The position numbers were made by a program, and so were the translations under genes. Below are positions 27,848 through 64,000 of a stretch of 64,000 bases of DNA, in pieces. The stretch is from assembly GCA_964291265.2 (NCBI GenBank), contig OZ219747.1:2080001-2144000 (forward strand), in the 5' to 3' direction. The notes beneath the pieces were generated by a model, which saw nothing but the letters and a program-made list of their open reading frames with translations, was not told the DNA's origin and made no database searches. The stretch's first letter is position 1; every line of letters starts with the position of its first letter. The DNA is from Alphaproteobacteria bacterium (lineage in GTDB: Bacteria > Pseudomonadota > Alphaproteobacteria > SP197).

Positions 27848-28255
27848 GGCTCATTCCCCGGCTGCCGGCGGCAGCAGTGTAGTCAATGAAGGCCGATCGC
27901 AGCCAGGCGAACCGGCAGGCATGCGACACCGTCGCGCCACTCTCGGCACTCGTGACTGTCCACACCCTCGTCGCTTTCTCGAATGAACCCGGGAGATCCA
28001 CGTCAGCTTGATGATGGAGACAAGGTTCAGACGTCCTGACCTCGTGAGTTGACTTGATCCGTCCGGACCTTCTTTTTTTCCAACACAATGAACGGGTTTC
28101 CCAGTTTTTTGCTTGACACCATAGCCGCACCTTCGGTGCTGAACGGAACTGTAACCCACTGAAACAAAAAGCGTTCTCTCTCACGACATTCCGCCGGGGA
28201 AGCGGATTCATGCCGTTTCCGTACCCCCGGTGCAACAGGAATCGGGGAGAATGCC

Positions 28256-29392: not shown

Positions 29393-30552
29393 CACGCAAG
29401 ATGCGTCTGAGTGATCGTGTCGTTTCCCGGCTGGTGGCCGCACCGGGCGAATTCACTGTCTGGGACACGCGGATCACGGGCCTTGGTGTCAGGGTGCGGC
29501 CTTCCGGTCACAAGTCCTTCGTTCTCCTGGACAACGGCAATGGCTCCTCGAAACGCAGAACTCTGGGTTCCGCGACTCATATGACTGTCGACAAGGCCCG
29601 CTCCCGGTGTCTCGCCATCCAGTCCGGCGCCCTTAAATCCGTGACGGACACGCCACCGTCTCCTCTCTTCGGCGACTTTGTCGAAGATGTCTGGTGCTCG
29701 GAGTGTTTCGATCGATTCAAGCCGTCCACCCAGCGGACCACCGTGACCGCACTCAAGGCTCAACTCCTGCCAGCCTTTGGCGCCATGCCGCTTGACCGGA
29801 TCACACGCAAGGAGGTGATGGCGTGGTTCGACCACTACAGCGGGGCGGCGCCAAGCGGCGCCAACCGCGCTCTCGACACGTTGGGCCAGATCCTCAATCA
29901 CGCCAAGGTCCACGGCCATCTTGAGACCAACCCTGCACGAGGCATTCGCCGCAACCCGCAACGCCGGTTCAACCGGTTCCTGTCCCGGGACGAAACCCGT
30001 CGCCTACATGCCGAACTGGACCGACTGGTCGCAGAACGCCCCGAGCGGACAGCGCAGGCGGACATCATTCGTCTTTTGTTCTATACGGGATGTCGTCTGA
30101 GTGAGATTCGAAGGCTCAAGTGGTGCGAGGTCTGCGCCGATACTCTCGATCTTGAGGACAGCAAGACCGGACCACGAAAAGTCTACCTCAACAGCAAGGC
30201 CCGCCGGATCATCGCTCGTCAGCCCCGGACAGGCAGCGATCATGTCTTTCCATCGCCCCTTGATCCGACCGTACCCATATCGAGCGTCCAGCAGCTGTGG
30301 ATCACCCTCCGCGAACGGGTCGGAATCGAGGATGTGCGTCTGCATGACCTGCGACACAATTTCGCCAGCCAGGCTGTCCTCAACGGTGTGCCGCTTCCGA
30401 CCGTGTCGAGACTCCTTGGTCACCGGCAGGTTTCGATGACCCTGCGATACGCACACGTGGCGGACAGCGAAGTCGAAGCCGCTGCCGAACGGATCGGCGA
30501 AGGAATCGACGCCATATGTCGTTCGAGGACGCACAATCCACCACGACCATGA
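29389..30552 (+). CDS. Tyrosine integrase (pair member B)
   Basis: ATGA-coupled to A; GLGVRVRPSGHKSF, TGCRLSEI, LHDLRH, LLGHRQVSMTLRY. Confidence 0.93.
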   Translation: MTRKMRLSDRVVSRLVAAPGEFTVWDTRITGLGVRVRPSGHKSFVLLDNGNGSSKRRTLGSATHMTVDKARSRCLAIQSGALKSVTDTPPSPLFGDFVEDVWCSECFDRFKPSTQRTTVTALKAQLLPAFGAMPLDRITRKEVMAWFDHYSGAAPSGANRALDTLGQILNHAKVHGHLETNPARGIRRNPQRRFNRFLSRDETRRLHAELDRLVAERPERTAQADIIRLLFYTGCRLSEIRRLKWCEVCADTLDLEDSKTGPRKVYLNSKARRIIARQPRTGSDHVFPSPLDPTVPISSVQQLWITLRERVGIEDVRLHDLRHNFASQAVLNGVPLPTVSRLLGHRQVSMTLRYAHVADSEVEAAAERIGEGIDAICRSRTHNPPRP

Positions 30553-41348: not shown

Positions 41349-41353
41349 ACATC

Positions 41354-47368: not shown

Positions 47369-49099
47369 GTAAGCGTTCGGTCGCGCGGTGATTGTTGGTG
47401 ATATTCACCGGTTGAGGATGCGTTTCCAGTCCTTGCGGAGAGGCCTCAGCCAGATGTCCTTTTTTGGTTTGTCGAGTTTCCTGTGCGTATCGTAGCGTCC
47501 GCGTCCTTTGGTGGTGCCGACATGGATCCATCCTGACGCCTTGTAGACGGTGCCTGTGTAGCGCGGTGTCTGGACGAAGGTTTCGATGAGGACCGGTGTG
47601 GTGTTGTAGCGTCTGGTCCAGTCATCGGACAGTCGGCGTCGCATGATGGCGAGGATGTGGGACCCAAGGTTGGCGATGGAAATCCAGGACATGATCAAGA
47701 AGCGTGGATTATCGACCACCAGCGGCAGGTTCTTCTGCCGCTGCTCGGGTGTCCATCCGATGAAGGTGTCGCGCGGGGCGATTTTCCAGGCGGCGGTGGA
47801 GAAGCCGAGCATGGCGACGGGCGCTCCGTTGCGATCATGGAAGGCGTAGCGCATCTGGGCTCCGACCAGTCTCGTGTAGCCGAGATAATGGTAGCGGGCG
47901 ACGAACTCGTTCCACAGCTTTCCTTCCCGGGTGCCGCATGTGACGATGGAGACGGCAAGGGGGCGGACCTCGTCGAGGGTTGTGGGAGGCGCGCCGCGTG
48001 GCGGTTCGCTGTCGGGTCCGAAGACGATGGGCTTGGGCCGGACCGGCGGGTGTTTGGGTGGCGGCAGGGTGATGAGGCCGTCGCGGTGCATGGCCAGGAA
48101 GGTGACACTCGCCATCATGTTCTTGAGGCCGCCGTCGGGCTTGTACCAGCCGGTCTCGCGGCAGAAGGCACGGGCGATGGCCGCACGGGTGGGGTGCTGG
48201 GTGATCAGGGAGCGCAACAGCGCCATCTCGTGCGCGGTGAAGTCACGGCCGTAGTAACGGCACTCGATCACCCCGGTTCCGTGAGGTCCCGTCGGCGCTC
48301 CGGGCTCATCGACCATGGCAGCCACGGGTCGAGGTCGTCCGGCGGCTTGCCGCCGTTCTGCGCACAGGCATCAAGCCACTCATGAAGCCAGCGCCGAACA
48401 TTGATGTTGTTCATGGCAAGGGTGCCGATGACCGAGTACATGATGGCGGTGAAGGCGGCGCCCTCCTCGCTGTCGGAGCCGAAGTTCAGCTTTCTCGCGG
48501 TCACCGCACCCCGGAGGGTTCTCTCGGCCAGGTTGTTGTCCATGGGCACCTGGGGATGATCGACGAAGACACACAGTCCCTCGCGGTGACGGATCAGGGA
48601 GCGCAAGGGCTTCGCTTCGCGTGCACCCTCGGGCAAGGCGTCGAGTTCCTCCTGTGCCTGCCTGAACAGCGCCTCGACAGCGACACGAAGGGCATCCTGC
48701 AGGGCATCGAACATCGCTGACTGATGCTCCCGTGCGTGCGGGATCGTAGTGCTTCAGCCGTTGCCCATTCAGTGTGTAGATCAGCGCGATCCTGTCGAGC
48801 CACCTGTCGCACCACTCTTCCAGCCCCTCCTGGCCTGCCGCAGCCTCGATCACATCGCGCCTGGAGTGCGTCCAGCAAAAGCAGAGGATCACCTTGCCAT
48901 CGAGCTCGCGCTCAAGTTTCTTGTAGACCGCGTAGCGGTCGCAGACAAGGAAGACGGTGCCTTCGGTGGAGGCGAACAGCACCATGGCCACCCGGGCGTT
49001 GCGTGACGGGTCGATGAGGAAGAAGACGGAGTCGGCGCTGACCGAGTTCCACAGCCAGGCCTTCTGCGAGCGCCCCGAGGCCTTGAGGGACTGGATGCG
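47369..49099 (-). mobile_element. IS66 B, second copy (right end and 3' part); interrupted by a group II intron at 49100
   Basis: IR gtaagcgttcgg at 47369; 48268-49099 closely matches the reverse complement of 19753-20580, with a frameshift near 48730. Confidence 0.92.
47405..48271 (-). CDS. DUF4338 protein (intact), passenger of IS66 B
   Basis: GTGA-coupled to the transposase stop; YHYLGY, RDTFIGW, NPRFLI, NLGSHIL, IETFVQ, GTVYKASGWIHVGTTKGRGR. Confidence 0.88.
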   Translation of the reverse strand: MIECRYYGRDFTAHEMALLRSLITQHPTRAAIARAFCRETGWYKPDGGLKNMMASVTFLAMHRDGLITLPPPKHPPVRPKPIVFGPDSEPPRGAPPTTLDEVRPLAVSIVTCGTREGKLWNEFVARYHYLGYTRLVGAQMRYAFHDRNGAPVAMLGFSTAAWKIAPRDTFIGWTPEQRQKNLPLVVDNPRFLIMSWISIANLGSHILAIMRRRLSDDWTRRYNTTPVLIETFVQTPRYTGTVYKASGWIHVGTTKGRGRYDTHRKLDKPKKDIWLRPLRKDWKRILNR

Positions 49100-49864
49100 G
49101 TGTGCCAGGCGAACTGGCGGAAGGTAGGGGGGGAAAGTCCCCTGAAACGAAGGAGTAACCAAACCACGTTTCTCCGCGAGCCGTGCGTCGGTTCCCGCGA
49201 GGGGGCAGGCGAAGCGTCGGTAGCGGTACGGATGGGCAGGGCTAATGAGCACCGAAAAGTCCGTTGTTCGGGGTGCCGAGGCTTTCGCATCGGTCGAAGG
49301 CAACATCGCAGGCATCGATTTGGTGAGATGTCGGCGAGCCCCGCGGTGTGGCCCACAAGGTCACACCTGAGAGCGATGATCTGACTGACAGACGCCCCAC
49401 CTTCTCCCTCACGAATACCGCACGTTATCAGTGACATGGATGGTCTGTCAATGCCCTCGTGGCGTGGCGCCGCCAACCACATCCAGGCCCGTTTCCAGTG
49501 CATGAAAGTTGCATTTGCGGAAACGACGGCCGAGATACACACACCGTCCAGGCCCCTGCCTGATCGTCGGAACTGCGCGCTTCCAGGCACCACAAGAAAG
49601 CCACATGGAAGCAGCGCCAGACCGGACCTGCCACTTTACACAGGGTAGACCCGTGGTATTCTGGCATCGAAGTGAGCGAGATGACCACGAGAGACTATCC
49701 CATGTGGTGCAGGAGACACAGCCACATCAACGGTCAGTCACAGGCACCACAAGAGCGTCACATGGCATGCCTTGAACCGGGCGCTTCACAACACCATAAG
49801 AACGACATAGCAAGGGCCGCGCCGTGGACCACAGAGACACCATAGGGCCGCCACCGGTCGACAC

Positions 49865-50167
49865 ATGAAGAAGACCACAAAGAAGCAACACACGGTGATG
49901 ATGACCGACAGCGAGTGGCAGGATCTCAGGGAGACCTCTGCCGCTGCCGGCATGACGGTCTCGGCTTTCATCGTCCATCGCCTGGCAGGGTCGGCAGAGG
50001 CTTCCGGAAGCGATCCGCGGATCGATGCGAGGCTCGAGAGGATCGAGCGCTCGGTGCGGATCCTCGAGGAGATCGAACGCCTGCGCCTGAGTGCGGACGG
50101 CGAGACCTGGGACAAGATCAGGGACATCGTGGAGGCACGCATGAAGATCGACCGCAGGCTGGACTGA
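49865..50167 (+). CDS. Ribbon-helix-helix (MobC/NikA-like) protein 1
   Basis: TVMMTDSEWQDLRETSAAAGMTVSAFIV. Confidence 0.7.
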   Translation: MKKTTKKQHTVMMTDSEWQDLRETSAAAGMTVSAFIVHRLAGSAEASGSDPRIDARLERIERSVRILEEIERLRLSADGETWDKIRDIVEARMKIDRRLD

Positions 50168-50178
50168 AGGAGGTGTCC

Positions 50179-50496
50179 ATGGCAGACGAGGCGCGTCCTC
50201 GGCAACGCAACTACTACTGCACGCCGAGCCAGAACCGGATGATCGAGAAGCGTGCCAAGGAAGCCGGGATGAACCGTTCGAGGTTTCTCGTGGCCTGTGC
50301 GCTCCACGAGGACGCCGGCGGTGGCGAGAAGCTGGTTCTCAACGAAGAAGAACAGCACAGTCTCCTGGATCGGGTGACGTCCTTCCATACGTTCGCGGTG
50401 GCGCTCGGCAGGGAGCTGCCGGATATCGGCATGACGCCGTTGGAGGCGCTGTCGTTCCTCGTCCGTGCGGCGAAGCGGGAAGGGGCGGAACCATGA
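50179..50496 (+). CDS. Ribbon-helix-helix protein 2
   Basis: AAGGAGG RBS; YYCTPSQNRMIEKRAKEAGMNRSRFLV. Confidence 0.7.
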   Translation: MADEARPRQRNYYCTPSQNRMIEKRAKEAGMNRSRFLVACALHEDAGGGEKLVLNEEEQHSLLDRVTSFHTFAVALGRELPDIGMTPLEALSFLVRAAKREGAEP

Positions 50497-50894
50497 GGCG
50501 CCGCGAGCGGGTGACGAAGTACTCGCTGTCGGCGACGGACGAGGAATGGGAACGCATCAAGGCCCGGGCCAGCCGCGCCGGCATGACGGTCTCGGCCTTC
50601 CTTGTGGAGAGTGCCCTTGCCGTCGATCCGGGGCGTCCTGCCATCACCCTTGCGCTGACACACGCTGACCAGCGGGTGTTGCTGATGCTGGTCGAGGACA
50701 TTCATGCCGTGCTTTCCGAGAGTCGATGGGACGACCCGTCGATCCGCGACAAGATCCGCAACAGCACCTCCTTCCTCGCCCGCCAGAAGATGCAGGACAT
50801 GATCCGGGATGGCCGCCGCGAGGACCTGTACGCCATCCTGGCGGCGATGCTCGGTGAGGAGGAGGCAGCGAGGGTCATCAAGGCGCTGACCTGA
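50493..50894 (+). CDS. Ribbon-helix-helix protein 3
   Basis: ATGA-coupled; SLSATDEEWERIKARASRAGMTVSAFLV. Confidence 0.7.
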   Translation: MRRRERVTKYSLSATDEEWERIKARASRAGMTVSAFLVESALAVDPGRPAITLALTHADQRVLLMLVEDIHAVLSESRWDDPSIRDKIRNSTSFLARQKMQDMIRDGRREDLYAILAAMLGEEEAARVIKALT

Positions 50895-51183
50895 CGGGCC
50901 GCAAGCCCGGTGGGGTCAGGGGCGTGTCCTGGCGGCGGAGGGCGCTCTGGAGTGGTTCCAGACCAGGTCTCCCGGCTTTCGCGTCGATGACGAGGCGGCG
51001 GATGGCCACGTCTCGCTCGTGGACGCCATCAGGAGTGAGTGGGAATTCGTGGTGGCTGCGGATGGTCCAACACGGGGCGGGGACTACAGGAACAATCCCG
51101 TTCTCATCCGGGAAGATTCTGCACCTCCTCGCCGCCGACACGATGTCGAAGACGGGCGGCGTATCTCGCCGACTGGCTCCTTG

Positions 51184-54100
51184 TCACATGGAGAACCCGC
51201 GGCTCCGGGATCGCGACTGCTCCTGCCTTTGCTCCTCGCGCCGCCGTTCCATCCGCACGCTGTCATCGGGTGGACCATAAGCCTTCCTGATCTCCTCGAA
51301 GGCGGCCATGGCCTCGGCCATGTCACGAGCCGTCGCGCTGCCGTCGGCAAGCACCTCGCCGTAGGCTCCTTCACGCCCGAGAACCCGGCGAGCGTTCCAG
51401 GTCCAGCTCTGGGTCGCATCGTGCCAGTACTTGTATGCTGCGCTCTGGTGGAGAGCGAGACCCTCCTTCCCGGCTTCCGTGGCAAGCGACCGAGCGCGCC
51501 GATGAAAGTGATCGATCTTGCCTGCAAGGCGCCTGACCTCGGCTTTCACCTCATTGCGCCTGTCCTCGTCGTAAGTCTCCTGCCACAGCATCCGGCAGCG
51601 GGGATCGTCCGCCTCGAGTCTGCGGTAGAGCGCCGTCATTTCGGGGATGATGTCCTTCCAGGCCGGCGTCTGTGTGGGATGGACGCCCCGGCGGTCAGCC
51701 TCCTCGGCGTTGTCGTGGAGACGCAACAGCAGCCAGCCCGGAAGGGTGTCGCGTTTGTTTCTCTTCGCGATCATGCGCTCGACGCGGGAGACGAGAGCCC
51801 GGGCGCCCTCGGTCCCGTCGAGGTGGTGTGCGAGGGCGGGACTCTTCAACTCCCCGATCACCGGCGCCAGCGTCTCCGCCTCCTTCCGCCAGCGTTTCCA
51901 TCTCCTGTTCCAGCGTCGATTGAGCGGCCTGTCGCGTGATCCCTCCCGCTCCAGCAGTACCCTGCGGTCGCGGTCGAGGGCGCTCACGGACGCCAGGAGC
52001 GTTTCCACCCGTTCCCGCTCCCGGGCATGGGTGTCGGCCTCCTTGAGAGCCCGGGCGAGCGCCTGGGGAAGCACGGCGTCCTGGGGAGCCTGATCCTTCA
52101 GGCGTCGGATGGCTGCCAGGATCCGGCCGGCATCAGGGTGACCGAAGGCATCGCCGCCGGTCCGCCCCGCGTCATCGGCATGGTGGCGCCAGGTCTCGAC
52201 GAGGGCGTTGGCCTCGGTGTCGAAGGCGACGAGAGCCTCGAGGCGTTCTGCATCCCGCCATGTCGTCGCGCCCGTCGCGCCCGCCGCACCGGCTTTCCAG
52301 TCCGCGATCGCCGATCGGGTCTCCCGGCGCCATGTCTTCCATGCCGCCAGCGACGCGAGCGCCTGGCCCTCGGATGCGTACTGCAGTCGCTGACGCTCCT
52401 GCAGCGCCCGGGCAATTGCCTGTGCCGCCAGGACAGGATCGGGCGCCGGGGGTGGTGGAGTCGCGATCGATGGTGAGGATACCTCAGCGGGTGGCGGCGC
52501 CGGTCTGACGGGCCGCGGCGCCGGCGTTGCCGGCTGACGCGTTGGCGGAGTTGCCGGTGGACCGGGAGCCGGTGCCGGTTCTCGCGTCATCGTCGGCGTC
52601 CGCTCTGGCGCAGGCTTCCGTGCGGAAGGCGGGGAGGCCGCCGGTGCCGGACGCGGAGCGGGCGCCGTCGTCGCCGGCTGGCGCGTTGGCGGATCTACCG
52701 TTGGACCGGGCGCCGGTGCCGGTCCTCGCGTCATCGTCGGCGCCCGTTCCGGTGCAGGCTTCCGTGCGGGAGGCGGGGAGGCCGCCGGTGCCGGACGCGG
52801 AGCGGGCGCCGGCGTTGCCGGCTTGCGCGTTGGCGGAGTTGCCGGTGGAGCGGGCGCCGGCGCCGGTCCTCGCGTCATCTTCGGCGCCCGTTCTGGCGCA
52901 GGCTTCCGTGCGGCAGGCGGGGAGGCCGCCGGTGCCGGACGCGGAGCGGGCGCCGGCGTTGTCGGCTGGCGCGTTGGCGGAGTTGCCGATGGACCGGGCG
53001 CCGGCGCCGGTCCTCGCGTCATCGTCGGCGCCCGTTCTGGCGCAGACTTCCGTGCGGAAGGCGGGGAGGCCGCCGGTGCCGGACGCGGAGCGGGCGCCGT
53101 CGTCGCCGGCTGCGCCTTCTTCACACCCGTCACCGGCCCAGGTTGCGCCTCCTGCTTCTTCCGTTCCGCGCGCCATGCGTCACGGCGTTCCATGAAGTCA
53201 GCAAGGACCCGGGGTAGGGGTTCTCCATCGAGGATTCTCAAAGTCATGTTGTTGATGCAGTCCATCGCCAGAAGAGAGACATCAAGTCCGGCCTGGGGAT
53301 CGCGCGCGGCTGCCCTGGCCTCGGCCTCGTGCGCTTCCAGGCGGGCGACGAGGTCAACTGCACCATCATCCAGGTCGAAGGCCCGGCCAAGCCGAGCTGC
53401 GTCACGATCAGCCACGTCGCTCAGCGCACCATCGCGCCGCTGCCAGGCATCGACTGCGGCTTCGGCTCGCTTCCGCCAGCTGGCATAGGCGGCAAGCGAG
53501 GAAATCAGACGGCCCTCGGCCTCGGCAACCAGCGCCCGGCGTTCCTCGATCGCGGCAGCAAGACCTTCGACGACATCGTCACCTGATATGTGGTCGCCTG
53601 CAGGGGTCTCTGCCGGCGCCTCGGCGGCATCGTGATCCGTGGCGGGCATCTGCGGGGCCTCTCCGGATTGCGGCCTCTCCGCATGCGCCACGGCAAGCAA
53701 CTCCTCCTCGCTGAACAGAAGATCCAAGGCATCGGTGCCCGTTGTCGTCTCGTAACGGCGGACAAGGTCGTCCAGATCCCAGGGCAGTCTGGCGTAAGGC
53801 GGCGCTTCGCTGCCAACCAGGACCACATGCTGCACCAGTTCTCTGGCATCCGGGCTCAGGAGAGAATCCTCGTCGGGTTCTCCTTCCTTCGCGACATGAC
53901 GCCGGAGCTTCTCCACGAGTTCCAGAACATCGTTGTCGAAGGCAAGCAGGCCTTGCAGGGTCTCTGCTGTCTCCGTCCAGTCGATACGGCCTGCCACCTC
54001 GCCACCGATGTCGAGAGCGGCCGTCGTTCTCTCCTTCCATGCCGCATACCCGTCCATGCCGGAAAGGGGTGCGCCGTCAGCCGCGTCCTCGAGGCGAAGG

Positions 54101-56982
54101 CGTTCCTCGAGACACCGGTCGAGGTGGGGTTCAAGGGCGCGAAGCTCCTCCAGTCCCTTGGTCCGTCCGCGGACATCCTGCAGAGCGTCGTCGGAGAGAA
54201 CGGGCTTGGGGAGAACGTCGACCCGTGTTTCCCCTTCTTCCCGGAATTGTCCGCCGATCGCCTCGAGAGCGGAGAGTTCATCTCCCGTCGCCGTCTCGAG
54301 AGCCTCCACCAGAGCATCCCGGTCGTCGGTCAGCAGCACCGCGTTGTCGCGGGCCCGCGTCAGTTCGACGTAGAACGCCGCCTGGCCCGTGATGGCGCCC
54401 TGGTTCGCATCGAGGACAGCGATCACCTGATCGCAGGTCATCCCCTGGGCCGCATGAACCGTCGAGGTCCATGCATGATCGATGAAGTGCAGATGGGGGT
54501 CATCATGAGCCAGGGTCAGTGTGCGGCCGTCGGCGGCCTGAAGCCACAGGCTGCTCTTGCCGATCGAGAGGACCCGCGCCTCCTCGCCGTTGAGAAGACC
54601 GCGTTCCTTGTCGTTGCGGGTCCAGCGGATCCTCTCCCCGGCCTGGAGTTCGATTGGTTCCGTCTCGAAGAGATCGACCCGGTAGCGCAGGTACTTCGAC
54701 GGATCGGCCCGGCGGGTCTTCCCGTCCGGATGCCTGAGCAGGACCTTCTCTCCTTGCGATCCGATGACGCCGAAGATGTCGCCCGACTTCGCCTGGACAC
54801 CGTAGACATCCGCATGGAAGACGGCGATGTCGCCCTCGCGCCAGTTGTCGAGATCCCCTTTCTGGGCCCGGGTGAGGTGGAGATTGACGTAGCGCTCGAT
54901 CTCGAGTGTGCGCCCGTGGAGGTTCCCCTCGGCCTTGAGGCCATCGCGGATGCCCTGCGTGATCTCCCGGCGCCGGGCATGGGTCGGGGCCAGGACCTTC
55001 GTGGCCTTACGCGATTCCCGGTCGAGATCAAGCCACAGGGCCGCGGCCCGTGGTCCGAGTTCGTCCGCGTCCATCTCCAGGACGCCGGGGCCGAGTTCCT
55101 CGATGGCGAGATCCGGCTTGCCCTCGATCATGTGGAGCACCGCGGCCTTCAGGCTCTCGTTGCGCTGCCGCAGGACCTCGTCCATCACCGCCGTCTCCAT
55201 GCCGGCCTTCTGCAGCACCCGGAACGGCTGACCGGCCTCGACCGAGCGCAGCTGCGCCCGATCGCCCACCAGGGCAACCCGGGCGATGCCCGTCGCCTCG
55301 GCGATGCGGCTGAGACCGTGCATCTGCGCCATGCTGATGAGCGACGCCTCGTCCACCACGAGAAGGGTTCCTTCCAGGGCCTCGCGAGCTCGTGCCAGGG
55401 ATTGGATGTCGGCGCAGCCGTCGCCGACATCCCGGTAGCGGGTGAGGAACCACTGCAGCGTCTTCGTGCCGATCCCGGTCTCCCGCTGCAGCGTGCGGGC
55501 CGCACTGCTCGAGGGCGCCAGGGCGACGATCCTGTCGGCCCCGGCCAGTTCGACGACCTGCTTCAACATGGTCGTTTTCCCGGTGCCCGCATGCCCCTGA
55601 ACACCGCAGACATGACGGGAGGACAGCAGCAGGGTGTTGACGGCGGCCTTCTGGCCGTCGTTGAGCGCACCGGCCGCAAGGTGGCGCTCGATGTGGTCGG
55701 CATCGATGGCGAACCGCTCGGGGGCATCACTCTCCTGCTTCATCCAGCGAAGCACCGCGCGTTCGGCCTTCACGGCCCGGTCCGTGACGAAGGCGCAGTC
55801 GGAACGTGCCGCCGTCGCCTCGATGAGGTGACCTTCCCGTCGCAGCCGGCCGATCGCCGCATCGACCTCCTTGAGGGTCCAACGGCCCGGCGCCAGGACG
55901 AGGGCCCGCAGCATGTCGGCCGTGAAGACCGTGCGCCGCTCCTCGATGTGCTCGACCGCCCGGCGGACGGCGTGGAGCGCCGAGGGAGACTGCCGGTTGG
56001 CAACTCCCCGGCGCGCAAGGTGCCAGCGCTCGCGGTCGAGGCGTGTGTGGGATGCCGGGCGGTTGCGGGAGATGTGGCGGTTGCGGGGAGCGCACTCCGC
56101 CATGCGGGCCTTCCAGATGTTGGCGAGTTCCTCGCGCGACGGCTCGTCCTTGCGCTTGCGGGTATAGAGAACCGCCTGTTGCATCACGGCGGCCGACTGC
56201 TCGTCCAGGTTACGCTCCCGGGCCCACGCCACGGCCTGCGCCCGGCGGGTCGAGAAGGCCTCCAGCGTCGCCTTGTCGTAGCCGGCAATCTCGAAACCGG
56301 GCACGCTACCCACCATGGTCTGTTCGGTGGCGTAGCCCAGGGCCTCGATGCGCCGCCTCAACTCCGCCCGGTAGTGAGCGCCGATCAGCAGCTTCGCGCG
56401 CTCGATCCTGATGAAGTCGGCGCTGCGCCACTCGCCATCCGGGTTCCGGGTCATGTTGGCGACAACGCTATGGGTATGAAGCTGCGGGTCGAGGTTGCGG
56501 CTGGCGTAATGGCGGAAGGTCGCCGCCACAAGGCCGTCGGCCTTGATGCGCGGGCGCTTGCGGGTGGCGGGGTCCCATCCCCGGGTCTCCAGCAGCTCCC
56601 TCTCGATGAAGTCAAGTGTCGCGGTCACTGCCTCGTCATGCGCTCGGATGATCCGGGCTGCCGCCTTCGGCGCCGCGTGCACCAGGGCCTCCAGAGAGAC
56701 CGACTTCGGAGCCGAGAAGGTGATGTCGAGGCCCGGACGGTGCTCGTGCCGACCCTTGCGCAGGCGGCCCAGCCGGGTCTTCGTGCCAGGAATGCGCCCG
56801 GAGAGGACTTCCTCGAAGCGCTTCGGCTTGACGGGACCGTGAAGGCCCAGGGCCTCCACGCCCCTGCCATGCCAACGGCTCGCCTTGCGGTGCTCGAGGT
56901 CGTTCTTCGCGTAATATCCATCCACCTCGAAGTAATGGACCGTCGAGGCAGCTTCAGTGAGGCGGGTAACCGTGGCAACCAT
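51184..56982 (-). CDS. MOBF (TrwC/TraI-type) relaxase-helicase with a long C-terminal extension
   Basis: YF...GYY, DITFSAPKSVS, HYASRNLDPQLHTH (HUH); GHAGTGKTT, VDEAS, TVHAAQGMT; tail RSRSRGFSM. Confidence 0.95.
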   Translation of the reverse strand: MVATVTRLTEAASTVHYFEVDGYYAKNDLEHRKASRWHGRGVEALGLHGPVKPKRFEEVLSGRIPGTKTRLGRLRKGRHEHRPGLDITFSAPKSVSLEALVHAAPKAAARIIRAHDEAVTATLDFIERELLETRGWDPATRKRPRIKADGLVAATFRHYASRNLDPQLHTHSVVANMTRNPDGEWRSADFIRIERAKLLIGAHYRAELRRRIEALGYATEQTMVGSVPGFEIAGYDKATLEAFSTRRAQAVAWARERNLDEQSAAVMQQAVLYTRKRKDEPSREELANIWKARMAECAPRNRHISRNRPASHTRLDRERWHLARRGVANRQSPSALHAVRRAVEHIEERRTVFTADMLRALVLAPGRWTLKEVDAAIGRLRREGHLIEATAARSDCAFVTDRAVKAERAVLRWMKQESDAPERFAIDADHIERHLAAGALNDGQKAAVNTLLLSSRHVCGVQGHAGTGKTTMLKQVVELAGADRIVALAPSSSAARTLQRETGIGTKTLQWFLTRYRDVGDGCADIQSLARAREALEGTLLVVDEASLISMAQMHGLSRIAEATGIARVALVGDRAQLRSVEAGQPFRVLQKAGMETAVMDEVLRQRNESLKAAVLHMIEGKPDLAIEELGPGVLEMDADELGPRAAALWLDLDRESRKATKVLAPTHARRREITQGIRDGLKAEGNLHGRTLEIERYVNLHLTRAQKGDLDNWREGDIAVFHADVYGVQAKSGDIFGVIGSQGEKVLLRHPDGKTRRADPSKYLRYRVDLFETEPIELQAGERIRWTRNDKERGLLNGEEARVLSIGKSSLWLQAADGRTLTLAHDDPHLHFIDHAWTSTVHAAQGMTCDQVIAVLDANQGAITGQAAFYVELTRARDNAVLLTDDRDALVEALETATGDELSALEAIGGQFREEGETRVDVLPKPVLSDDALQDVRGRTKGLEELRALEPHLDRCLEERLRLEDAADGAPLSGMDGYAAWKERTTAALDIGGEVAGRIDWTETAETLQGLLAFDNDVLELVEKLRRHVAKEGEPDEDSLLSPDARELVQHVVLVGSEAPPYARLPWDLDDLVRRYETTTGTDALDLLFSEEELLAVAHAERPQSGEAPQMPATDHDAAEAPAETPAGDHISGDDVVEGLAAAIEERRALVAEAEGRLISSLAAYASWRKRAEAAVDAWQRRDGALSDVADRDAARLGRAFDLDDGAVDLVARLEAHEAEARAAARDPQAGLDVSLLAMDCINNMTLRILDGEPLPRVLADFMERRDAWRAERKKQEAQPGPVTGVKKAQPATTAPAPRPAPAASPPSARKSAPERAPTMTRGPAPAPGPSATPPTRQPTTPAPAPRPAPAASPPAARKPAPERAPKMTRGPAPAPAPPATPPTRKPATPAPAPRPAPAASPPPARKPAPERAPTMTRGPAPAPGPTVDPPTRQPATTAPAPRPAPAASPPSARKPAPERTPTMTREPAPAPGPPATPPTRQPATPAPRPVRPAPPPAEVSSPSIATPPPPAPDPVLAAQAIARALQERQRLQYASEGQALASLAAWKTWRRETRSAIADWKAGAAGATGATTWRDAERLEALVAFDTEANALVETWRHHADDAGRTGGDAFGHPDAGRILAAIRRLKDQAPQDAVLPQALARALKEADTHARERERVETLLASVSALDRDRRVLLEREGSRDRPLNRRWNRRWKRWRKEAETLAPVIGELKSPALAHHLDGTEGARALVSRVERMIAKRNKRDTLPGWLLLRLHDNAEEADRRGVHPTQTPAWKDIIPEMTALYRRLEADDPRCRMLWQETYDEDRRNEVKAEVRRLAGKIDHFHRRARSLATEAGKEGLALHQSAAYKYWHDATQSWTWNARRVLGREGAYGEVLADGSATARDMAEAMAAFEEIRKAYGPPDDSVRMERRREEQRQEQSRSRSRGFSM
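52510..53112 (-). repeat. 144-bp tandem repeat, about 4.2 copies, encoding a 48-aa Pro/Ala-rich unit in the relaxase
   Basis: gcgcgttggcgga recurs at 52681, 52825 and 52969. Confidence 0.92.
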
Positions 56983-57181
56983 GCAAGCTTATCCCCGAGC
57001 GATCGCAATAGAATTGCACAAGGCGTTCACCACACCGCTAGTTGCGACACTGACACCATATGAGTAGACTAATCTAACGAACTGAGCAAGTGGACTAAGC
57101 TTCCTGGCACTCCACGAAATGCAACGTTTTGCAACGCAGAAGTATAGACAAAGACACATTCCACAGTGGGGCGAGATCGCA

Positions 57182-58105
57182 ATGTCAGTGGAAATTCATT
57201 TTGGTGACTGTCTGGCTGTAACACCTGACTTCGAAACGGGATCGTTCAGCCTTGTATACATAGACCCTCCCTTCAACACGGGCCGAAAGCAAAAACGCAG
57301 ACAACTGAAGACGGTGCGAGACAACAACGGTGATAGAACGGGATTTCAAGGAAAGCGATACACAACACGCTGTCTTGGTGAATCATCATTTCACGACTCA
57401 TTCGATGACTACATGGGATTTCTGAAACCGCGCTTGATAGAGGCGAAACGCCTCTTGTCATCGACAGGCTCATTCTTCTTGCACATTGATTACCGGGAGT
57501 CTCATTATTGCAAGGTGTTCTTGGACACCGTTTTCGGACGCGAGTCGTTCATCAACGAGATCGTGTGGGCTTATGATTACGGTGCCAGATCGAAACGCCG
57601 ATGGTCTGCAAAACATGATACGATTTTGTGGTATGCTGTGAACCCGAAGGAGTACACCTATAGATATGAGGACATTGACCGCATCCCATATATGGCCCCA
57701 AATTTGGTAACGCCGGAGAAGGCCGCTCGCGGCAAGACGCCCACGGATGTTTGGTGGCAAACCATAGTCAGTCCAAATGGCAAAGAGAAAACGGGGTATT
57801 CAACACAAAAGCCCATTGCCATTCTGAATCGAATTATAAAGGTGCATAGTAACCCAGGAGACCGTGTTCTTGATTTCTTCGCGGGAAGTGGAACGACCGG
57901 TGAGGCGGCAGTTCGTAATGGTAGAAACGTGGTGTTGGTTGACAACAGTACAGAGGCGATTCGTGTTATGCGCCGGCGACTTGCGTTTGCAGAGCCGATC
58001 ATTCAGGGAGAAATGAAGGATGACGACAATTCAAGACCCGGAGGTCGGAATTCTAGCGACCTACTCGAAAGTACTGCAGTCGGACTACAAGGCCCCGGAC
58101 GATGA
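57182..58105 (+). CDS. N4/N6 DNA methyltransferase (beta class)
   Basis: GDCL, VYIDPPF, STQKP, VLDFFAGSGTT. Confidence 0.92.
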   Translation: MSVEIHFGDCLAVTPDFETGSFSLVYIDPPFNTGRKQKRRQLKTVRDNNGDRTGFQGKRYTTRCLGESSFHDSFDDYMGFLKPRLIEAKRLLSSTGSFFLHIDYRESHYCKVFLDTVFGRESFINEIVWAYDYGARSKRRWSAKHDTILWYAVNPKEYTYRYEDIDRIPYMAPNLVTPEKAARGKTPTDVWWQTIVSPNGKEKTGYSTQKPIAILNRIIKVHSNPGDRVLDFFAGSGTTGEAAVRNGRNVVLVDNSTEAIRVMRRRLAFAEPIIQGEMKDDDNSRPGGRNSSDLLESTAVGLQGPGR

Positions 58106-58586
58106 CCTATGGAACGGAAGCCCCTTCAACTGGATTCGATCCAGACCATCGAGACAGAAAGGTGCAATTGGTGAGAAGTTGATTGCTGGCTATCTAGCTT
58201 GTAAGGGGCTCGATGTCACTCGTTCGCCTGATGCTGAGGCAGATCGAATCATTGGCGGGAAACGAGCTGAAATAAAGATGAGCACTCTTTGGAAAAACGG
58301 TTCATACAAGTTTCAACAACTGCGCGATCAGAATTATGAGTTCGCGATTTGCCTGGGTATCAGTCCTTATGACGCTCATTGTTGGGTCATACCAAAGACA
58401 GAAATTACTAGCAAGCGGCATTCTATGGCGATCCCGTCTCAGCACGGCGGAAGAGTGGGAAGCGATACGGCATGGCTAACTGTCGATCCCCACGCAGTGC
58501 CCGACTGGTTGACAAAATGGGGCGGACGACTGTCAGATGCCGTGAGATTGATTACCAAGATTACCGAGCAAGAGCCGCTGAAGTGA
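58020..58586 (+). CDS. Putative type II restriction endonuclease, PD-(D/E)xK
   Basis: KGAIGEK...ADRII...AEIK; overlaps the MTase by 86 bp; same lower GC. Confidence 0.7.
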   Translation: MTTIQDPEVGILATYSKVLQSDYKAPDDDLWNGSPFNWIRSRPSRQKGAIGEKLIAGYLACKGLDVTRSPDAEADRIIGGKRAEIKMSTLWKNGSYKFQQLRDQNYEFAICLGISPYDAHCWVIPKTEITSKRHSMAIPSQHGGRVGSDTAWLTVDPHAVPDWLTKWGGRLSDAVRLITKITEQEPLK

Positions 58587-58662
58587 ACAAGCGGGTGCGC
58601 CAGGCTAAGGAGTCACGCCAAAATAGGTGATTTTTTTGTGTGGATCGGTTGTCCATGGTGTC

Positions 58663-59308
58663 ATGGCAGCGACGGTTGATACGCTGCGATCCAGATTTGT
58701 GGTGTTGCGTCCGTTTCTGAACGAACGTGCGCGGCGCCTGTGGGCGGCGACGGAGGCCCGTGCCATCGGGCGCTCAAGGTATTGAGCGAGTGGCCGAGGC
58801 GACGGGGATGTCGCGTAGCACCGTTCGCGCCGGGCTGAAGGAGCTCGGATCGGACGCGGTCTCGGGGTCTTCGAGTGAGATTCCTTCAGGGCGTTTGCGT
58901 CGCCCCGGCGGCGGGCGCAAGCGGGTGACGGATGTGGATCCGGGTTTGGTGGCGGCGCTGGAGCGCGAGCTTGAACCGATGACGCGCGGCGATTCGGAGA
59001 GTCCGCTGCGCTGGACGTGTCACAGTGCCGCACGGCTGGCGGCCCGCCTTGCGGTCGAGGGTCACCGCGTCAGCGAGCGCACGGTGAACCGGCTACTCCA
59101 CGATCTGGGGTACAGCCTTCAGGCCAATCGCAAGACGCTGGAAGGCCGCCAGCATCCGGATCGGGATGCGCAGTTCCGACGCATTGACCGCCGGGTGCGC
59201 GCGTTCCAGAGGCTGGGCCAGCCTGTGGTGTCGGTCGACACCAAGAAGAAGGAAATCGTTGGCCAGTACCGCAATGGCGGCCGGGAATGGCGCCTCAAGG
59301 GCAACCCT
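58663..59308 (+). pseudogene. ISAzo13-family transposase, frameshifted and 3'-truncated
   Basis: LNERARRLWAA, RRPGGGRK, SPLRWT, YSLQANRK, HPDRDAQF, SVDTKKKE. Confidence 0.88.
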
Positions 59309-59673
59309 GGTGTGGCATGGGCGGGCTGGAGCGGTAGGGAGGGTGTCATAACGAGCCAAAAATGGAACATGCGATATTAGATGCATTTATCGCCACATGT
59401 CAAGTGGAATCCGCGCTGAAACAGGCAGAAACACAGGAAAACCATGGATTTCCTGATCGGTGCGATATGCCCCTCAAAAGAGCAGGTCAGGATGTCTGAA
59501 GCTTGCTCCTCCGATGGCAGGTGGGATTACTCTACTTGGCCATGAGGCCTATTGTCTACATGTGGTGATTTCCCGGGGGTTTCCCAGGCAGATTCCAGGA
59601 AAATCGTGCCGTTGACACCGTTTCGTCAAGTCCTTACCATATTGGCCCGGAACGGAACATCAGAGGACGAGAG

Positions 59674-60165
59674 ATGAGATGTCTTGCACTCGCGGTCGTG
59701 GCGATGGTCGCGGCTCCGGCGGTTGCCGAAGAGGTGAGCGATCGAGCTCGTTTCAACCTATGGAACGATTGCGGAGTTGTAGATCTGGTAGTCGAGACAC
59801 CGTATGGTGACGCTGAAGCGATTGGTCTTCGCAAAGCGGACATTGAAACAACAGTGCGGAGCCGTCTGCGCGGCGCTCGCATTTATAATAGTGGAACCGA
59901 AGACACAGACATGTATCTTTATGTGCACATCAGCGTGGTCAGTTCCGCCTTTAGCCTCACTGTAGAACTTAAGAGGTTGGTTGCCCTGCCCCATTGGTCG
60001 ATCCCGGAAGGGGTGGCCCCGCTCATAGGTTACGCCTCAACGTGGATTGCAGGCAGCACCGGAATGCATGGCGGTGATCCGAATTTCCTCCTATCGGGTG
60101 CGGCTCAATACACAGACAAGTTCATCGATGAATATCTGCGCGTGAATGCCGCTGCGTGCCAGTAG
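59674..60165 (+). CDS. Hypothetical exported protein
   Basis: Signal peptide (MRCLALAVVAMVAAPAVA); no family recognised. Confidence 0.65.
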   Translation: MRCLALAVVAMVAAPAVAEEVSDRARFNLWNDCGVVDLVVETPYGDAEAIGLRKADIETTVRSRLRGARIYNSGTEDTDMYLYVHISVVSSAFSLTVELKRLVALPHWSIPEGVAPLIGYASTWIAGSTGMHGGDPNFLLSGAAQYTDKFIDEYLRVNAAACQ

Positions 60166-60242
60166 TCATGTCGTTTTGCTCGAAAGTCGAAGTGGAACAC
60201 TATCCCCGGTCCATGTGTCTTGACGGGCCCGAAGTTATCCCG

Positions 60243-61382
60243 TCAAGCGGTGGATGACATCCCGAGCAACCCTGAAATCAGCCCGCCAACCCGCTCGGCG
60301 GCGGCTTCGGTTTCACGATCGCCCGTGTGGGCGTAGCGCAGGGTCATGGTCGTCTGCGCGTGACCGAGGAGCCTTGCGACGACGGGAAGCGGCGCTCCCT
60401 GCATGACGGCATGGCTGGCGAATGTATGGCGCAGATCATGGAGCCTGACATCCTCGATGCCGGCCTCCCTGCGGACGACGTACCACAGTGGGAGGTCGTC
60501 GTTGAGCGGCCGTCCGGGATCGCGGGGGGACGGGAAGACGAATGCGCTGTCGCTGGGAAGACGGCGCTCGATGATGGCCCGGGCCGGAGCATTCAGGACG
60601 ACCGTGCGCGGGCCGACCTTACTGTTCTGGAGTCGGAGATTGTTGCCGAGCACCTCCCGCTTCTGCAGGCGGACGATCTCGTTCTTGCGGCACCCGGTGA
60701 GCATGAGAAGCCGGATGATGTCGATCTGCATTCGCCGTGATCGACTGATCCCCTGGAGATTGTCGTGGCGGTCCAGCACGCCATGCAGCCGATGAAGTTC
60801 CTCGCGCGAGAGGAAGCGGGTGAGTTTCCTGCGCGGGTTGGGTTTCACCGACCTTGCCGGGTTCGCTGTGATGTGGCCGCAGGCCATGGCGTGATTGAGG
60901 ATGTGTCGAAGGACCTTCAGGCAGGAATTGGCGCCGCCGGGCGCCGTTCTGCTGTAGTCGTCGAACCAGCGGTGCACCATGGCGGGCGTGATCCGGTCCA
61001 GGCATCGGGAACCGAATGTCGGCAGCAGGCGGGCTTGAAGGCACCTGTCGCGCCACTGGATCGTCCCGGGCTTGCACCGATGGATCCAGGAGTCGCGCCA
61101 TGCGCCGACAGCAAAGTCCCTGAACAACGGGGCCGAAGCCCTGTCGTCGTGACCGGCTGCCAGTCTTTCGAGGCTCTCCTTGCGGGCCACTTTGACCGTC
61201 TTGAAGGCGACCGGACCAAGCGATGTCCTTCTTCCGCCGTCGATGTGAACGAAGCCGCGGCCTCCCGACGGGTGGACCCGAACCCCGAGAGAGGGAACGA
61301 AGGTATCGCGAAGCGTGTACTCCCGGGATCGCGGCTTGAGGTTGTGCACGAGGGTATCCGTCAGCTTCTTCCTGCGGTTCAT
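60243..61382 (-). CDS. Tyrosine integrase (pair member B)
   Basis: TGCRKNEI, LHDLRH, LLGHAQTTMTLRY. Confidence 0.93.
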   Translation of the reverse strand: MNRRKKLTDTLVHNLKPRSREYTLRDTFVPSLGVRVHPSGGRGFVHIDGGRRTSLGPVAFKTVKVARKESLERLAAGHDDRASAPLFRDFAVGAWRDSWIHRCKPGTIQWRDRCLQARLLPTFGSRCLDRITPAMVHRWFDDYSRTAPGGANSCLKVLRHILNHAMACGHITANPARSVKPNPRRKLTRFLSREELHRLHGVLDRHDNLQGISRSRRMQIDIIRLLMLTGCRKNEIVRLQKREVLGNNLRLQNSKVGPRTVVLNAPARAIIERRLPSDSAFVFPSPRDPGRPLNDDLPLWYVVRREAGIEDVRLHDLRHTFASHAVMQGAPLPVVARLLGHAQTTMTLRYAHTGDRETEAAAERVGGLISGLLGMSSTA

Positions 61383-62506
61383 GCGTCAGTCCTTCCGAGA
61401 ACGGAGCCCACGGCCTCTGCCGCTTCAGCCATCATGCCGTCGGCGAGATGCGTGTACTTGAGAGTGGTCGCGGGATCGTTGTGACCGAGCAGTCGACCGA
61501 CGGTGAGAATGTTCTCTCCGTGCATGACGGCAAGGGAGGCGTAGGTGTGACGCAGGTCGTGAAGGCGCACATCCTCCAGGCGCGCTTCGGAGCGCACACG
61601 CATCCAGAAGTATCCGATGGCGCCTTGCGAGATGGACCTGGCGGTGGTCCTTGGCGATGGAAACATCCAAGGCGAACGACGAGGCAACGTCTTCAGGACC
61701 TTACGGGCGGGAGCCGACAGCCAGACCATGCGTGGCCCCGTCTTGGAATCTGCGAGATGGAGATGACCCTCGCGGTAATCCGCCCAGCGCAGCGACAGGA
61801 TCTCCTGGCTTCGGCACCCGGTGAGGAGCAGGAGGCGGATGATCGCCACCTGTGCCGGGAAGTGCGCTTCATGGTCCTGCAGCACGCGCCCGAGCCGGCG
61901 GACCTCCTCCACGCAGCAGAAGCGCTCCCGTCCCTGCCGTCGATAGCGCCTGATGCCCCGGCACGGATTGCTGCCTTCAGGCCGGTATCCGTAGTCCTCG
62001 GCACGGGCCATGATGACCGAGAGAACCGGAGCCGACCGGTCGGCTGCGACCGGCGTCGCGTGCAGGGAGGCGAACCACTCCTGAACATCGCCGCGCACGA
62101 TCTCCGCGATCTGGCGTCCACGGAACCACGGCAGGATATGGTTGCGGTAGTAGCCCCGGTTGACCGTGAGCGTACTGGGCTTCCATGTGCGCCCGTACCG
62201 GCGAAAGACCTCCTCGGCAACCGTCTCGAACAGGGTCTCGTGCGATGAAGCGGGAGCGCCGCTTCTGATGGCGGCGAGCATGGCCTGTGCGCGTTGTCTG
62301 GCCTCGGCGAGACCGATCCCGGCAGCGTCACCGACGATCTTCCAGATCCTCTGCCCATCATGCTGGGTATGGATGAAGTAGCGCTTGCGCCCCGATGGGT
62401 AGACACGGATGCCGAATCCCCTGAGATGGGCGTCACGGATGTCCCGGGCAGTTCTGCGAGGACGCAGGGCCTTGATGCGGCTCTCGGTGAGATGTGTTGC
62501 GGCCAT
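61379..62506 (-). CDS. Tyrosine integrase (pair member A)
   Basis: GFGIRVYPSGRK, TGCRSQEI, DSKTG, LHDLRH, LLGHNDPATTLKY; ATGA-coupled to B. Confidence 0.93.
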   Translation of the reverse strand: MAATHLTESRIKALRPRRTARDIRDAHLRGFGIRVYPSGRKRYFIHTQHDGQRIWKIVGDAAGIGLAEARQRAQAMLAAIRSGAPASSHETLFETVAEEVFRRYGRTWKPSTLTVNRGYYRNHILPWFRGRQIAEIVRGDVQEWFASLHATPVAADRSAPVLSVIMARAEDYGYRPEGSNPCRGIRRYRRQGRERFCCVEEVRRLGRVLQDHEAHFPAQVAIIRLLLLTGCRSQEILSLRWADYREGHLHLADSKTGPRMVWLSAPARKVLKTLPRRSPWMFPSPRTTARSISQGAIGYFWMRVRSEARLEDVRLHDLRHTYASLAVMHGENILTVGRLLGHNDPATTLKYTHLADGMMAEAAEAVGSVLGRTDA

Positions 62507-62901
62507 GGAGTCTCCCTCGAATGCGAGTTGCAGGAGCGGGAGATTCCGCTCGCGAAATCGCCTGCAGTTGCAGAAACGAGAGAGAAAATACGGCGTTAGT
62601 TCAGTTGTTTAGCACCACAGGTGCGTCCCGCGGTGTCGGAGAACCCATGCACGTCCGCACGCCTTCTGTTGGGACCCTGGGAGGTCTTCGAACTATCCCG
62701 CCTGTCGTGGCGGGACCGTGTAGGGAAAGGAGAAAGCCGAAGCCTATGAGGAACGGTTTGAAGAAGTCGGATGGGGCCGTAAGACCGGTGAAGGCGGCGA
62801 ACAAGGGAGCGTCAGCTTCTGCGGAGTCGCTGGAGGAAAGGGCCTCAACCAAGGGGAATCCGGGACGCCAAAGCACGCACCGAACGCAGTGTCGGGCAAG
62901 T

Positions 62902-64000
62902 GTGCCACAGGCGGCGGACCGGATACGGGAAGCTGCAGAGAGGAACCCGAAGGAGCGTCTCACTGCACTCTTCCATCACATTACGCCGGACGCGCTCCGG
63001 GCGGCCTACTTCGGTTTGAAGAAGGAAGCCTCGGCAGGTGTCGACGGCGTGACGTGGGCGGCGTATGGCGAGGGTCTGGACGAGCGCTTGCTTGATCTGC
63101 ACTCGCGCCTGCATCGTGGGGGAGCGTACCGGGCGCCGCCGGTTCGGCGGGTTGAGATACCCAAGCCGGACGGCGGGACACGACCGCTCGGGATTGCCGC
63201 ACTGGAGGACAAGATCGTCCAGAAGGCGGTTGTGGATGTGATCCTGACACCGATTTATGAGGTGGAGTTCCTTGGCTTCAGCTACGGGTTCCGACCGGGC
63301 CGAGGGGCGCATGACGCTCTCGACGCCCTGGCGTTCGGGATCGAGCGGCGCAAGGTCAACTGGATAGTCGACGCGGACATTCAGGGGTACTTCGACACAA
63401 TCCCGAGGGATTGGTTGATCAAGTTCCTGGAGCATCGCATTGGCGACAGGCGGGTGATCCGTCTGATCCGCAAGTGGCTGAACGCTGGCGTCATGACCGA
63501 CGGATCATGGAGCGACACCGGTGCGGGCACGCCTCAGGGCGCCATTGTCAGCCCCTGCCTGGCGAACGTGTTTCTGCACTACGTGCTCGATCTGTGGTTT
63601 CACAAGGCATGGCGTCCGAAGGTTCCGAACGGTAAAGCGATCATTGTCCGCTACGCGGACGATATTGTGGTCGGGTTCCAGCATAAGCGGGATGCGGAGA
63701 CATACCTTCGCGACGTTCGGGAGAGGCTGGACCGCTTTGGTCTCACCCTTCACCCGGACAAGACCCGTCTCGTTGAGTTTGGACGGTTTGCCAAGGCGAA
63801 CCGGCGATCTCGCGGGGCGGGCAGGCCGGAGACGTTCGACTTCCTGGGCTTCACGCACTTCTGCACGGAGACCCGGAGAGGACGCTTCAGGCTTGGTCGC
63901 AAGCCGGTCGCAAAACGGGTCGCAAGGACCCTGGCGCGCATCGAGGAGGTGCTTCGCAATCGACGGCATCACGACATATGGGAGGTCGGCATGTGGCTTG
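62902..64000 (+). CDS. ltrA: Group II intron reverse transcriptase/maturase; runs off the window, absent from the ORF track
   Basis: Manual translation: LTALFHHI, AGVDG, IPKPDGGTRPLGI, SYGFRPGRGAH, DADIQGYFD, GTPQG, RYADD, FDFLGF. Confidence 0.95.
   Translation, partial: MPQAADRIREAAERNPKERLTALFHHITPDALRAAYFGLKKEASAGVDGVTWAAYGEGLDERLLDLHSRLHRGGAYRAPPVRRVEIPKPDGGTRPLGIAALEDKIVQKAVVDVILTPIYEVEFLGFSYGFRPGRGAHDALDALAFGIERRKVNWIVDADIQGYFDTIPRDWLIKFLEHRIGDRRVIRLIRKWLNAGVMTDGSWSDTGAGTPQGAIVSPCLANVFLHYVLDLWFHKAWRPKVPNGKAIIVRYADDIVVGFQHKRDAETYLRDVRERLDRFGLTLHPDKTRLVEFGRFAKANRRSRGAGRPETFDFLGFTHFCTETRRGRFRLGRKPVAKRVARTLARIEEVLRNRRHHDIWEVGMWL

Follow-up and report, generated by a model that had tools for sequence, protein, structure and literature searches.

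Within a 64,000-nucleotide stretch of alphaproteobacterial DNA (assembly GCA_964291265.2, contig OZ219747.1, hereafter the window; positions 2080001-2144000 of contig C2 in genome G000 of our dataset), a group II intron is interrupted by a 13-kb mobilizable island. In the explanation that we prefer, to which we assign a probability of roughly two in three, the island integrates at sites that read its own 5-bp overlap followed by GGTGT, and it would lie in the intron since the overlap, CCCGC, matches a helix strand of 29 intron copies. A broader proposal seems to us an even bet: a widespread, undescribed family of two-integrase islands would have a DNA-programmed 10-bp target, consisting of five fixed bases and a five-base address carried in the circle. 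The address would random-walk through up to 1,024 values, lineages would become trapped on multicopy elements (group II introns, insertion sequences (IS)) as portable, self-multiplying pads, and in the integrase pair nature would offer a retargetable tool whose attB is among the shortest known.

The interrupted intron and its copies

The intron breaks off after the 10-mer CCCGC-GGTGT and resumes beyond the island with the same 10-mer (Table 1), and its 3' end is at C2:2144305, 305 nt past the window. The insert measures 13,287 bp plus one 10-bp repeat. When rejoined, the intron halves matched an uninterrupted copy (C2:1144144) at every one of 1,919 nt, and Rfam RF02005 matched positions 49134-49355 with 150.5 bits, above its gathering threshold; the split at this 10-mer, which the first-pass annotation had read from the window's letters, is thus borne out. 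The reverse transcriptase (RT)/maturase, an open reading frame (ORF) of 539 codons from stop to stop as read in one intact copy, matched TIGR04416 with 327 bits (cut-off 300). Exon-binding site 1 (EBS1) is complementary to the six bases at the end of the exon, and from one intron copy to another it varies together with the exon. The intron may be of class E/F, whose structure is treated in PMC3753933. Because it lies antisense within an IS66 transposase gene, no host gene depends on its splicing. The Rfam alignment of a sister copy and the fold place the 10-mer as the 3' strand of a domain I helix, and therefore the insertion parts nt 1-250 from the strands closing domain I and from all later domains.

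The genome contains 13 full-length uninterrupted copies of the intron, two occupied copies and 15 ORF-less copies of 660 nt. The site at 18549-18558, which had been offered as the empty counterpart, does have an empty core, but it belongs to one of the ORF-less copies (94% identical; RF00029, 33.6 bits, under the gathering threshold of 40), and the true equivalents are the 13 full-length copies.

The second occupied copy carries a 16.7-kb element (C2:936295-953035) at the same base, in the same orientation and at the same IS66 target site. The integrase modules of the two intron-borne elements are 96% identical, with 82 substitutions evenly spread over 2,336 nt; their relaxases are 53% identical, their restriction-modification pairs differ, and the left end of the second element has no match elsewhere in G000. 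Between the two occupied introns there are 2 differences in 1,919 nt, and the IS66 flanks diverge by 4.6%. These comparisons suggest that the two elements are likely to be separate recent integrations. A third integrase module (C2:917800), 96-98% identical, ends at the non-intron site CCCGT-GGTGT; a left end is missing up to a distance of 60 kb. An orphan left end resembling that of the window lies in a helicase gene with the core CCCGG-GGTGT. Four ends of this lineage read CCCGN, twice as CCCGC in introns and as CCCGT and CCCGG outside them. A search for right ends of the same lineage in 400 genomes sampled from the class gave 22 pattern matches outside G000, none of them adjoining an integrase. 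Two further breaks near the core (C2:1339208 and 3954004) were rejected as integrase junctions, their partner repeats lacking GGTGT, and the intron copy at C2:1469806 proved to be near an integrase remnant and not inside it.

Three contig sets from one study contain the DNA of the window (X1-X3), and X1 is possibly from the source sample; no RNA data set was listed as containing it. A short-read unitig of X1 spans 49320-52644 without differences and crosses the left junction, its intron part being only 30 nt, one short of our bridging rule. In X3, from another sample, we found a variant 96.6% identical over 1,697 nt, without most of the relaxase and without the cargo, whose contigs extend into the intron by 46 nt at the left end and by 30 nt, including the repeat, at the right end; the data fit a third insertion and an inherited one alike. 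In X1, two contigs exit the intron at window position 49349 with 0.83 agreement. One matches the left end of the second element, and the other may be a further element outside the assembly.

Target sites of the island family

Integrase 1 of the island has many homologues in the genus. Right ends of related elements were collected from 40 regions around the best integrase matches and by pattern scans of metagenomes (66 loci) and genomes (at least 119 loci). After requiring an adjacent integrase and at least 250 nt of element end and removing duplicates, 123 right ends were retained, and the named records behind them are mostly metagenome-assembled genomes of Alphaproteobacteria. The ends have a common layout: AGCACC-NNN-GGTGCG, no base or one base, five variable bases, GGTGT and then host DNA. 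Automatic grouping assigned them to about 107 host sites, with 99 different 5-mers. Five integrase-first loci fell outside the end pattern used, and in four of these the GGTGT junction was still present. None of the 12 host positions to the right of GGTGT exceeded 0.13 bits, and left of the core only a borderline G/C at -9 was seen (19 sites). An intron flank, searched for with an intron domain I profile and the RT, adjoined only 2 of the 123 ends, both of them G000 elements; 16 of the flanks searched were shorter than 500 nt, and the search could overlook insertions lying antisense in introns of other classes. The plasmid collection contained distant relatives only (at most 42%), such as a tandem pair on the Shewanella oneidensis megaplasmid.

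Three observations concern individual host sites. A family member at C2:1751340-1765290 has a dam-like methyltransferase gene as its host, within a repeat of which about 28 empty copies exist, and the member's core is CGTGT, not GGTGT. The host site CCACT-GGTGT is used in nine loci (L039, L040, L041, L058, L060, L062, L065, L067 and L104) with integrases 63-78% identical to that of the window; this hotspot spans several genomes and is at the start of a gene that by eye resembles one for a secreted or outer-membrane protein. In L178 the host flank resembles, by eye, the 5' end of a tRNA gene, a classical target that is here only one address among many.

Left ends were located through the NikA genes in 15 of 31 elements of relatives and in seven elements of G000; they were not found in the fetched DNA for the remaining 16. 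The 5-bp overlap was the same at both ends in 18 of the 22 elements, and three others had one mismatch (position 4 or 5), which predicts some tolerance at these two overlap positions. Half of the identical-end elements (9/18) were first found through a repeat search and then confirmed by the NikA position, and for L043, where the motif filter chose another candidate, the exact repeat at the usual distance was counted. When elements in different hosts were paired, at least four of the five overlap bases matched in 2% of the pairs with end identity below 90%, in 26% at 90-95% and in 56% above 95%. Taking one pair per sibling clade (ends at least 94% identical, unrelated hosts), at least four bases were common in 5 of 11 clades, a number that 20,000 shuffles never reached. 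Overlap matching that occasionally tolerates mismatches fits this pattern. For the mv4 integrase, specificity is set by overlap identity according to the available text of bioRxiv 10.1101/2023.11.06.565760. Free target duplication does not fit, because no sibling memory would be expected from it, nor does a donor-footprint scheme, because the ends would then usually differ. The putative address changes within a few percent of divergence.

Several results weigh against the preferred explanation. One of the 22 elements has three mismatches between its two ends, and not all of the 22 are independent, since five of them lie in two orthologous host genes. The overlaps differ in 6 of the 11 close clades, and two G000 elements with ends 95% identical have the overlaps GCTAT and GAAGA; therefore homology is not strict or drift is fast. 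The sample of right ends was partly gathered with patterns demanding GGTGT, although the integrase-first sample gave the same core. The circular junction, which the first-pass annotation had proposed to look for, is not listed in the three contig sets, and contigs drop rare forms. Finally, VirB4 or TrwB-type genes were not found in G000, where a search with three families gave only a coupling-protein fragment.

Copy number of the intron as a target

The 10-mer has 43 matches in G000, which comprise 27 empty intron cores, four junctions and 12 other sites. Counted before insertion, 29 of the 41 exact targets were intron copies, and the chance that both insertions fell in introns is accordingly about 0.5 at today's copy numbers. 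The intron is thus best read as a landing pad that would multiply itself through copy number, without dedicated recognition. Five of the seven G000 elements with both ends sit in multicopy DNA, namely two introns and three IS-type repeats (28, 11 and 8 empty copies), whereas 9-18% of the GGTGT sites are in such DNA (binomial P = 0.001-0.011, with the intron counted once). Survival in harmless DNA and copy-number trapping both predict this enrichment. The recognizable host sites in relatives resemble ordinary genes. Five intron homologues, 89-90% identical, from three related genomes have retained the 10-mer without being occupied, and more distant introns do not have it. Among 20 genus loci with 21 Rfam matches, no element end was seen in the 14 matches whose region was inspected.

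The earlier suggestion that a multicopy intron serves as an attachment site holds as far as recurrence is concerned, two elements at one base in G000 being joined by a related occupied copy in X3; a search for other occupied copies had been proposed, and one was found in G000 and none in the inspected matches of relatives. Dedicated targeting of the intron was not supported, in view of about 107 unrelated sites, the two intron flanks among 123 ends and the two same-lineage ends outside introns. The first-pass annotation had regarded unrelated sites of homologous elements as a sign of a chance hit. Such sites were found, which partly goes against it, yet the hit would not be chance, because under overlap matching intron copies account for 29 of the 41 exact targets.

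Alternative explanations

Insertion beside any GGTGT without overlap matching, with the five host bases duplicated by repair or replication and the intron hits reflecting survival in harmless multicopy DNA, would account for the 99 overlaps among 123 ends, for both ends usually having the host's bases, for the six of 11 close clades that differ and for the five of seven elements in multicopy DNA. It leaves unexplained that siblings at unrelated sites have a common overlap more often than in any shuffle, that four ends in one lineage read CCCGN, and that two hits fell at one base, though intron cores are 29 of about 10,300 GGTGT sites. We consider it doubtful, although it is the strongest of the alternatives. 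A further possibility is that the integrase lineage recognizes a longer intron-specific sequence or structure and that selection has favoured its riding the retroelement. In G000 the two complete elements of the lineage occupy introns, the diverged X3 variant has both ends in an intron, and the five homologues in related genomes retain the 10-mer; but outside introns there are the end of a 96%-identical integrase module and, in the helicase gene, a matching left end, no intron flank was found at the 121 other ends, the five homologues are empty while more distant introns lack the 10-mer, and the 400 sampled genomes of the class yielded no end of the same lineage. Dedicated targeting appears unlikely.

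Lower still is our estimate for one old insertion that was duplicated with the intron and IS66, its copies later swapping cargo, relaxase and left end. The same base, orientation and IS66 target site and the 96% identity of the integrase modules would be expected from such a history, but the introns differ by 0.1% and the integrase modules by 3.6%, the third, non-intron module is closer to one of the two (97.6%) than they are to each other, and later homogenization of both intron halves would be required. That a mis-assembly at a repeat joined the island to the intron halves is barely credible: there are about 30 intron copies, no listed contig covers the whole stretch and no long reads were seen, but the end motifs of the family and an exact 10-bp repeat are present at both junctions, the geometry recurs in a second element, and short-read unitigs from two samples cross the junctions.

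Proposed course of events and effect on the intron

Under overlap matching, the island likely integrates as a circle at sites reading its own overlap plus GGTGT. The integrase pair would read the element's own ends and, in the host, little more than GGTGT, strand exchange would favour identity of the overlaps, and an occasional mismatched integration would alter the overlap, so that new addresses arise as lineages drift. If the address of a lineage occurs in a multicopy element, that lineage would be drawn there repeatedly at little cost to the host. The intron would multiply empty sites by retrohoming, which an occupied copy probably cannot do, and transfer of the island would need a helper conjugation system.

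A block of splicing in cis is plausible, as a 15-kb transcript across convergent genes would be needed. Splicing may still occur: Ll.LtrB split in domain I can trans-splice according to the available part of PMC1874635, its split site lying upstream of the EBS sequences. If the island excised precisely, the product would match the intact intron exactly; to that extent the earlier expectation that excision restores the intron is supported. Two distinct intron copies (C2:1375030 and C2:2663383) lack exactly five bases at the core, possibly as excision scars that also remove the target or through slippage between 2-bp repeats. In a third copy (C2:3954247) two bases are missing at the attachment core.

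Other irregularities were seen among the intron copies. The ORF-less copies are near-identical, have changed EBS1/EBS2 sequences and almost all occupy a single IS66 transposase site, one at C2:2219838 sitting in another target; their 3' end is unlike that of the full-length intron near the branch region, and they may be mobilized in trans or ride the IS. In four copies (C2:2596600, 2670778, 3034819 and 3954254) an element that ends at one shared position has replaced the first 7 nt, which is a second insertion hotspot in the intron. Copies at C2:1339360 and 1375420 onward break at nt 395 and continue with a sequence resembling the start of another group II intron, a possible twintron, and a gap of 1.2 kb also occurs at C2:1455173-1456212. 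At C2:3300886-3300923 the last 38 nt of one copy adjoin a broken integrase 2 homologue, suggesting that the intron also inserts into the island family.

Anatomy of the island and its surroundings

The features are listed in Table 1. By its anatomy the island is a putative integrative mobilizable element (IME), with a recombinase that has intact catalytic residues, a relaxase with accessory proteins, and direct repeats matching an empty site. No mating-pore genes were found among the scanned ORFs of the 13-kb element, and no VirB4 matches in G000. The two integrases are 36% identical to each other; integrase 1 matches PF13356 (presumably DUF4102) with 39 bits, and integrase 2 gave no PF13356 match. 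The motif and repeats of the left end are candidate arm sites and a candidate oriT. In the relaxase gene, tandem repeats of about 141 bp (52498-53118) code for Pro/Ala-rich linkers. PADLOC identified the restriction-modification pair as MTase_II (E = 9e-134) and REase_II (E = 2e-53). A scan for promoters gave 6 sites (2.2 expected) and one for terminators 7 (8.0 expected), with nothing useful at the junctions. The nesting has four levels, a 52-kb element of the same family enclosing IS66, the intron and the 13-kb island.

Table 1. Features of the window that bear on the interrupted intron and the island
Feature	Position in window	Strand	Basis or remark
ORF-less 660-nt sister intron in another IS66	18309..18968	+	empty core 18549-18558
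Right end and integrase pair of enclosing 52-kb same-family element	28116..30552	+	other end at C2:2160230
DISARM-like cargo of 52-kb element	30662-43953		five genes: DrmD, DrmMI, DrmA, DrmB, DrmC
IS66 transposase part, intron inserted antisense	48380..49099	-	Pfam DDE_Tnp_IS66
Intron-binding sites IBS2 and IBS1	49088-49092; 49094-49099	+	EBS pairing, from sequence
Group II intron 5' piece, nt 1-250 of domain I	49100..49349	+	RF02005; identical to intact copy
EBS2 and EBS1, within intron 5' piece	49258-49262; 49286-49291		EBS1 complements IBS1
attL core, overlap CCCGC (5 bp) and fixed GGTGT	49340..49349	+	3' strand of domain I helix
Element left end, non-coding	49350..49864	+	CTCTC-type motif common to family left ends; four short direct repeats
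NikA-like ribbon-helix-helix gene 1	49865..50167	+	Pfam PF21983, 25.5 bits, slightly below cut-off of 27
NikA-like gene 2	50179..50496	+	Pfam PF21983; NCBIfam MobA weak
NikA-like gene 3	50493..50894	+	Pfam PF21983, 33 bits
MOBF (TrwC-type) relaxase-helicase, 1,932 amino acids (aa), open, Pro/Ala-rich repeats	51184..56982	-	Pfam TrwC and AAA_30; NCBIfam MobF above cut-off
Type II restriction-modification pair, cargo of 50% G+C	57119..58586	+	methyltransferase 57119-58105, nuclease 58020-58586
ISAZ013-family transposase fragment	58727..59380	+	Pfam PF07592, partial
163-aa ORF, no known family	59674..60165	+	neither Pfam nor NCBIfam match
Tyrosine integrase 2, 379 aa	60243..61382	-	all catalytic residues kept; 4-bp overlap with integrase 1
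Tyrosine integrase 1, 375 aa, arm-binding domain	61379..62506	-	catalytic R232 K255 H316 R319 H342 Y351
Palindrome AGCACC-NNN-GGTGCG, conserved family-wide at right end	62611..62625	+
attR core	62627..62636	+	identical to attL
Intron 3' piece, rest of domain I onward with RT/maturase ORF	62627..64000	+	TIGR04416; 100% to intact copies

Comparison with known systems

The island resembles the IMEs with IntSXT/P4-type integrases, as far as the available text of Smyshlyaev et al. (2021, PMC8138268) describes them, in its putative arm-binding N-terminal domain, relaxase and accessory proteins, lack of mating-pore genes, direct repeats at both ends and defence cargo. It differs in having two overlapping, catalytically intact integrases instead of one, and in a target of five fixed and five lineage-specific bases, found across its family in about 107 unrelated hosts, whereas the target gene of those IMEs is fixed; in the same text, IntSXT clusters insert beside tRNA, prfC and similar genes. 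With phage mv4 and overlap homology of the lambda type (bioRxiv 10.1101/2023.11.06.565760, available text) it would share that specificity is set by identity of the attP and attB overlaps and is retargetable by an overlap change. In the mv4 system a single integrase acts on a tRNA target, and the 7-bp overlap is flanked on either side by degenerate core sites (21 bp); the island has a 10-bp repeat, essentially one-sided conservation and natural retargeting apparently about a hundred times.

Strand-biased circularizing elements (SEs) and GInts (2023, PMC10214605, as covered in the text available) likewise have more than one tyrosine recombinase per element and a short variable spacer at the ends. 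They have four core genes and are putatively non-mobilizable, and the donor footprint of SEs makes their ends differ, whereas the island has two adjacent integrases, a relaxase and, across its family, matching ends in 18 of 22 elements. Assignment of the island to these groups was rejected by the definitions in that source. An SE requires intA, tfp, intB and srap, but the island integrases overlap with nothing between them; no mobilization genes would be expected in an SE, in contrast to the MOBF relaxase; and the attL and attR spacers should differ. RITs and GInts need three recombinase-type genes in a row, and the island has two. Tn554 combines a simple, non-arm-binding TnpA with TnpB and TnpC, whereas integrase 1 has an arm-binding domain and no third module gene is present.

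The host intron is similar to the IS-homing bacterial group II introns RmInt1 and TeI3, as partly documented in our sources, in its multicopy occurrence in IS, the EBS1/EBS2 pairing, the lack of an apparent endonuclease domain and the ORF-less copies; it differs from them in being itself the target of a DNA integrative element. The literature that was searched, with subscription journals mostly and supplements outside it, described neither the family nor its target rule, nor any integrative element within a group II ribozyme, and integrase-target tables in the parts outside the search could list such sites.

Implications

The nest of island, intron and IS66 is real and recurrent, and it is through its copy number, not through dedicated targeting, that the intron is often hit. 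The minimal, drifting target address of the family, as judged from comparative evidence alone, would be the more interesting result. It offers a concrete rule for how site-specific chemistry may operate at about a hundred sites, with the specificity placed in five changeable DNA bases. Should an assay bear this rule out, a change of five donor bases could direct the integrase pair to new sites, with a cargo of 10-50 kb. In the genome itself, one parasite would create landing sites for another, because each new intron copy adds a target in DNA that the host does not need.

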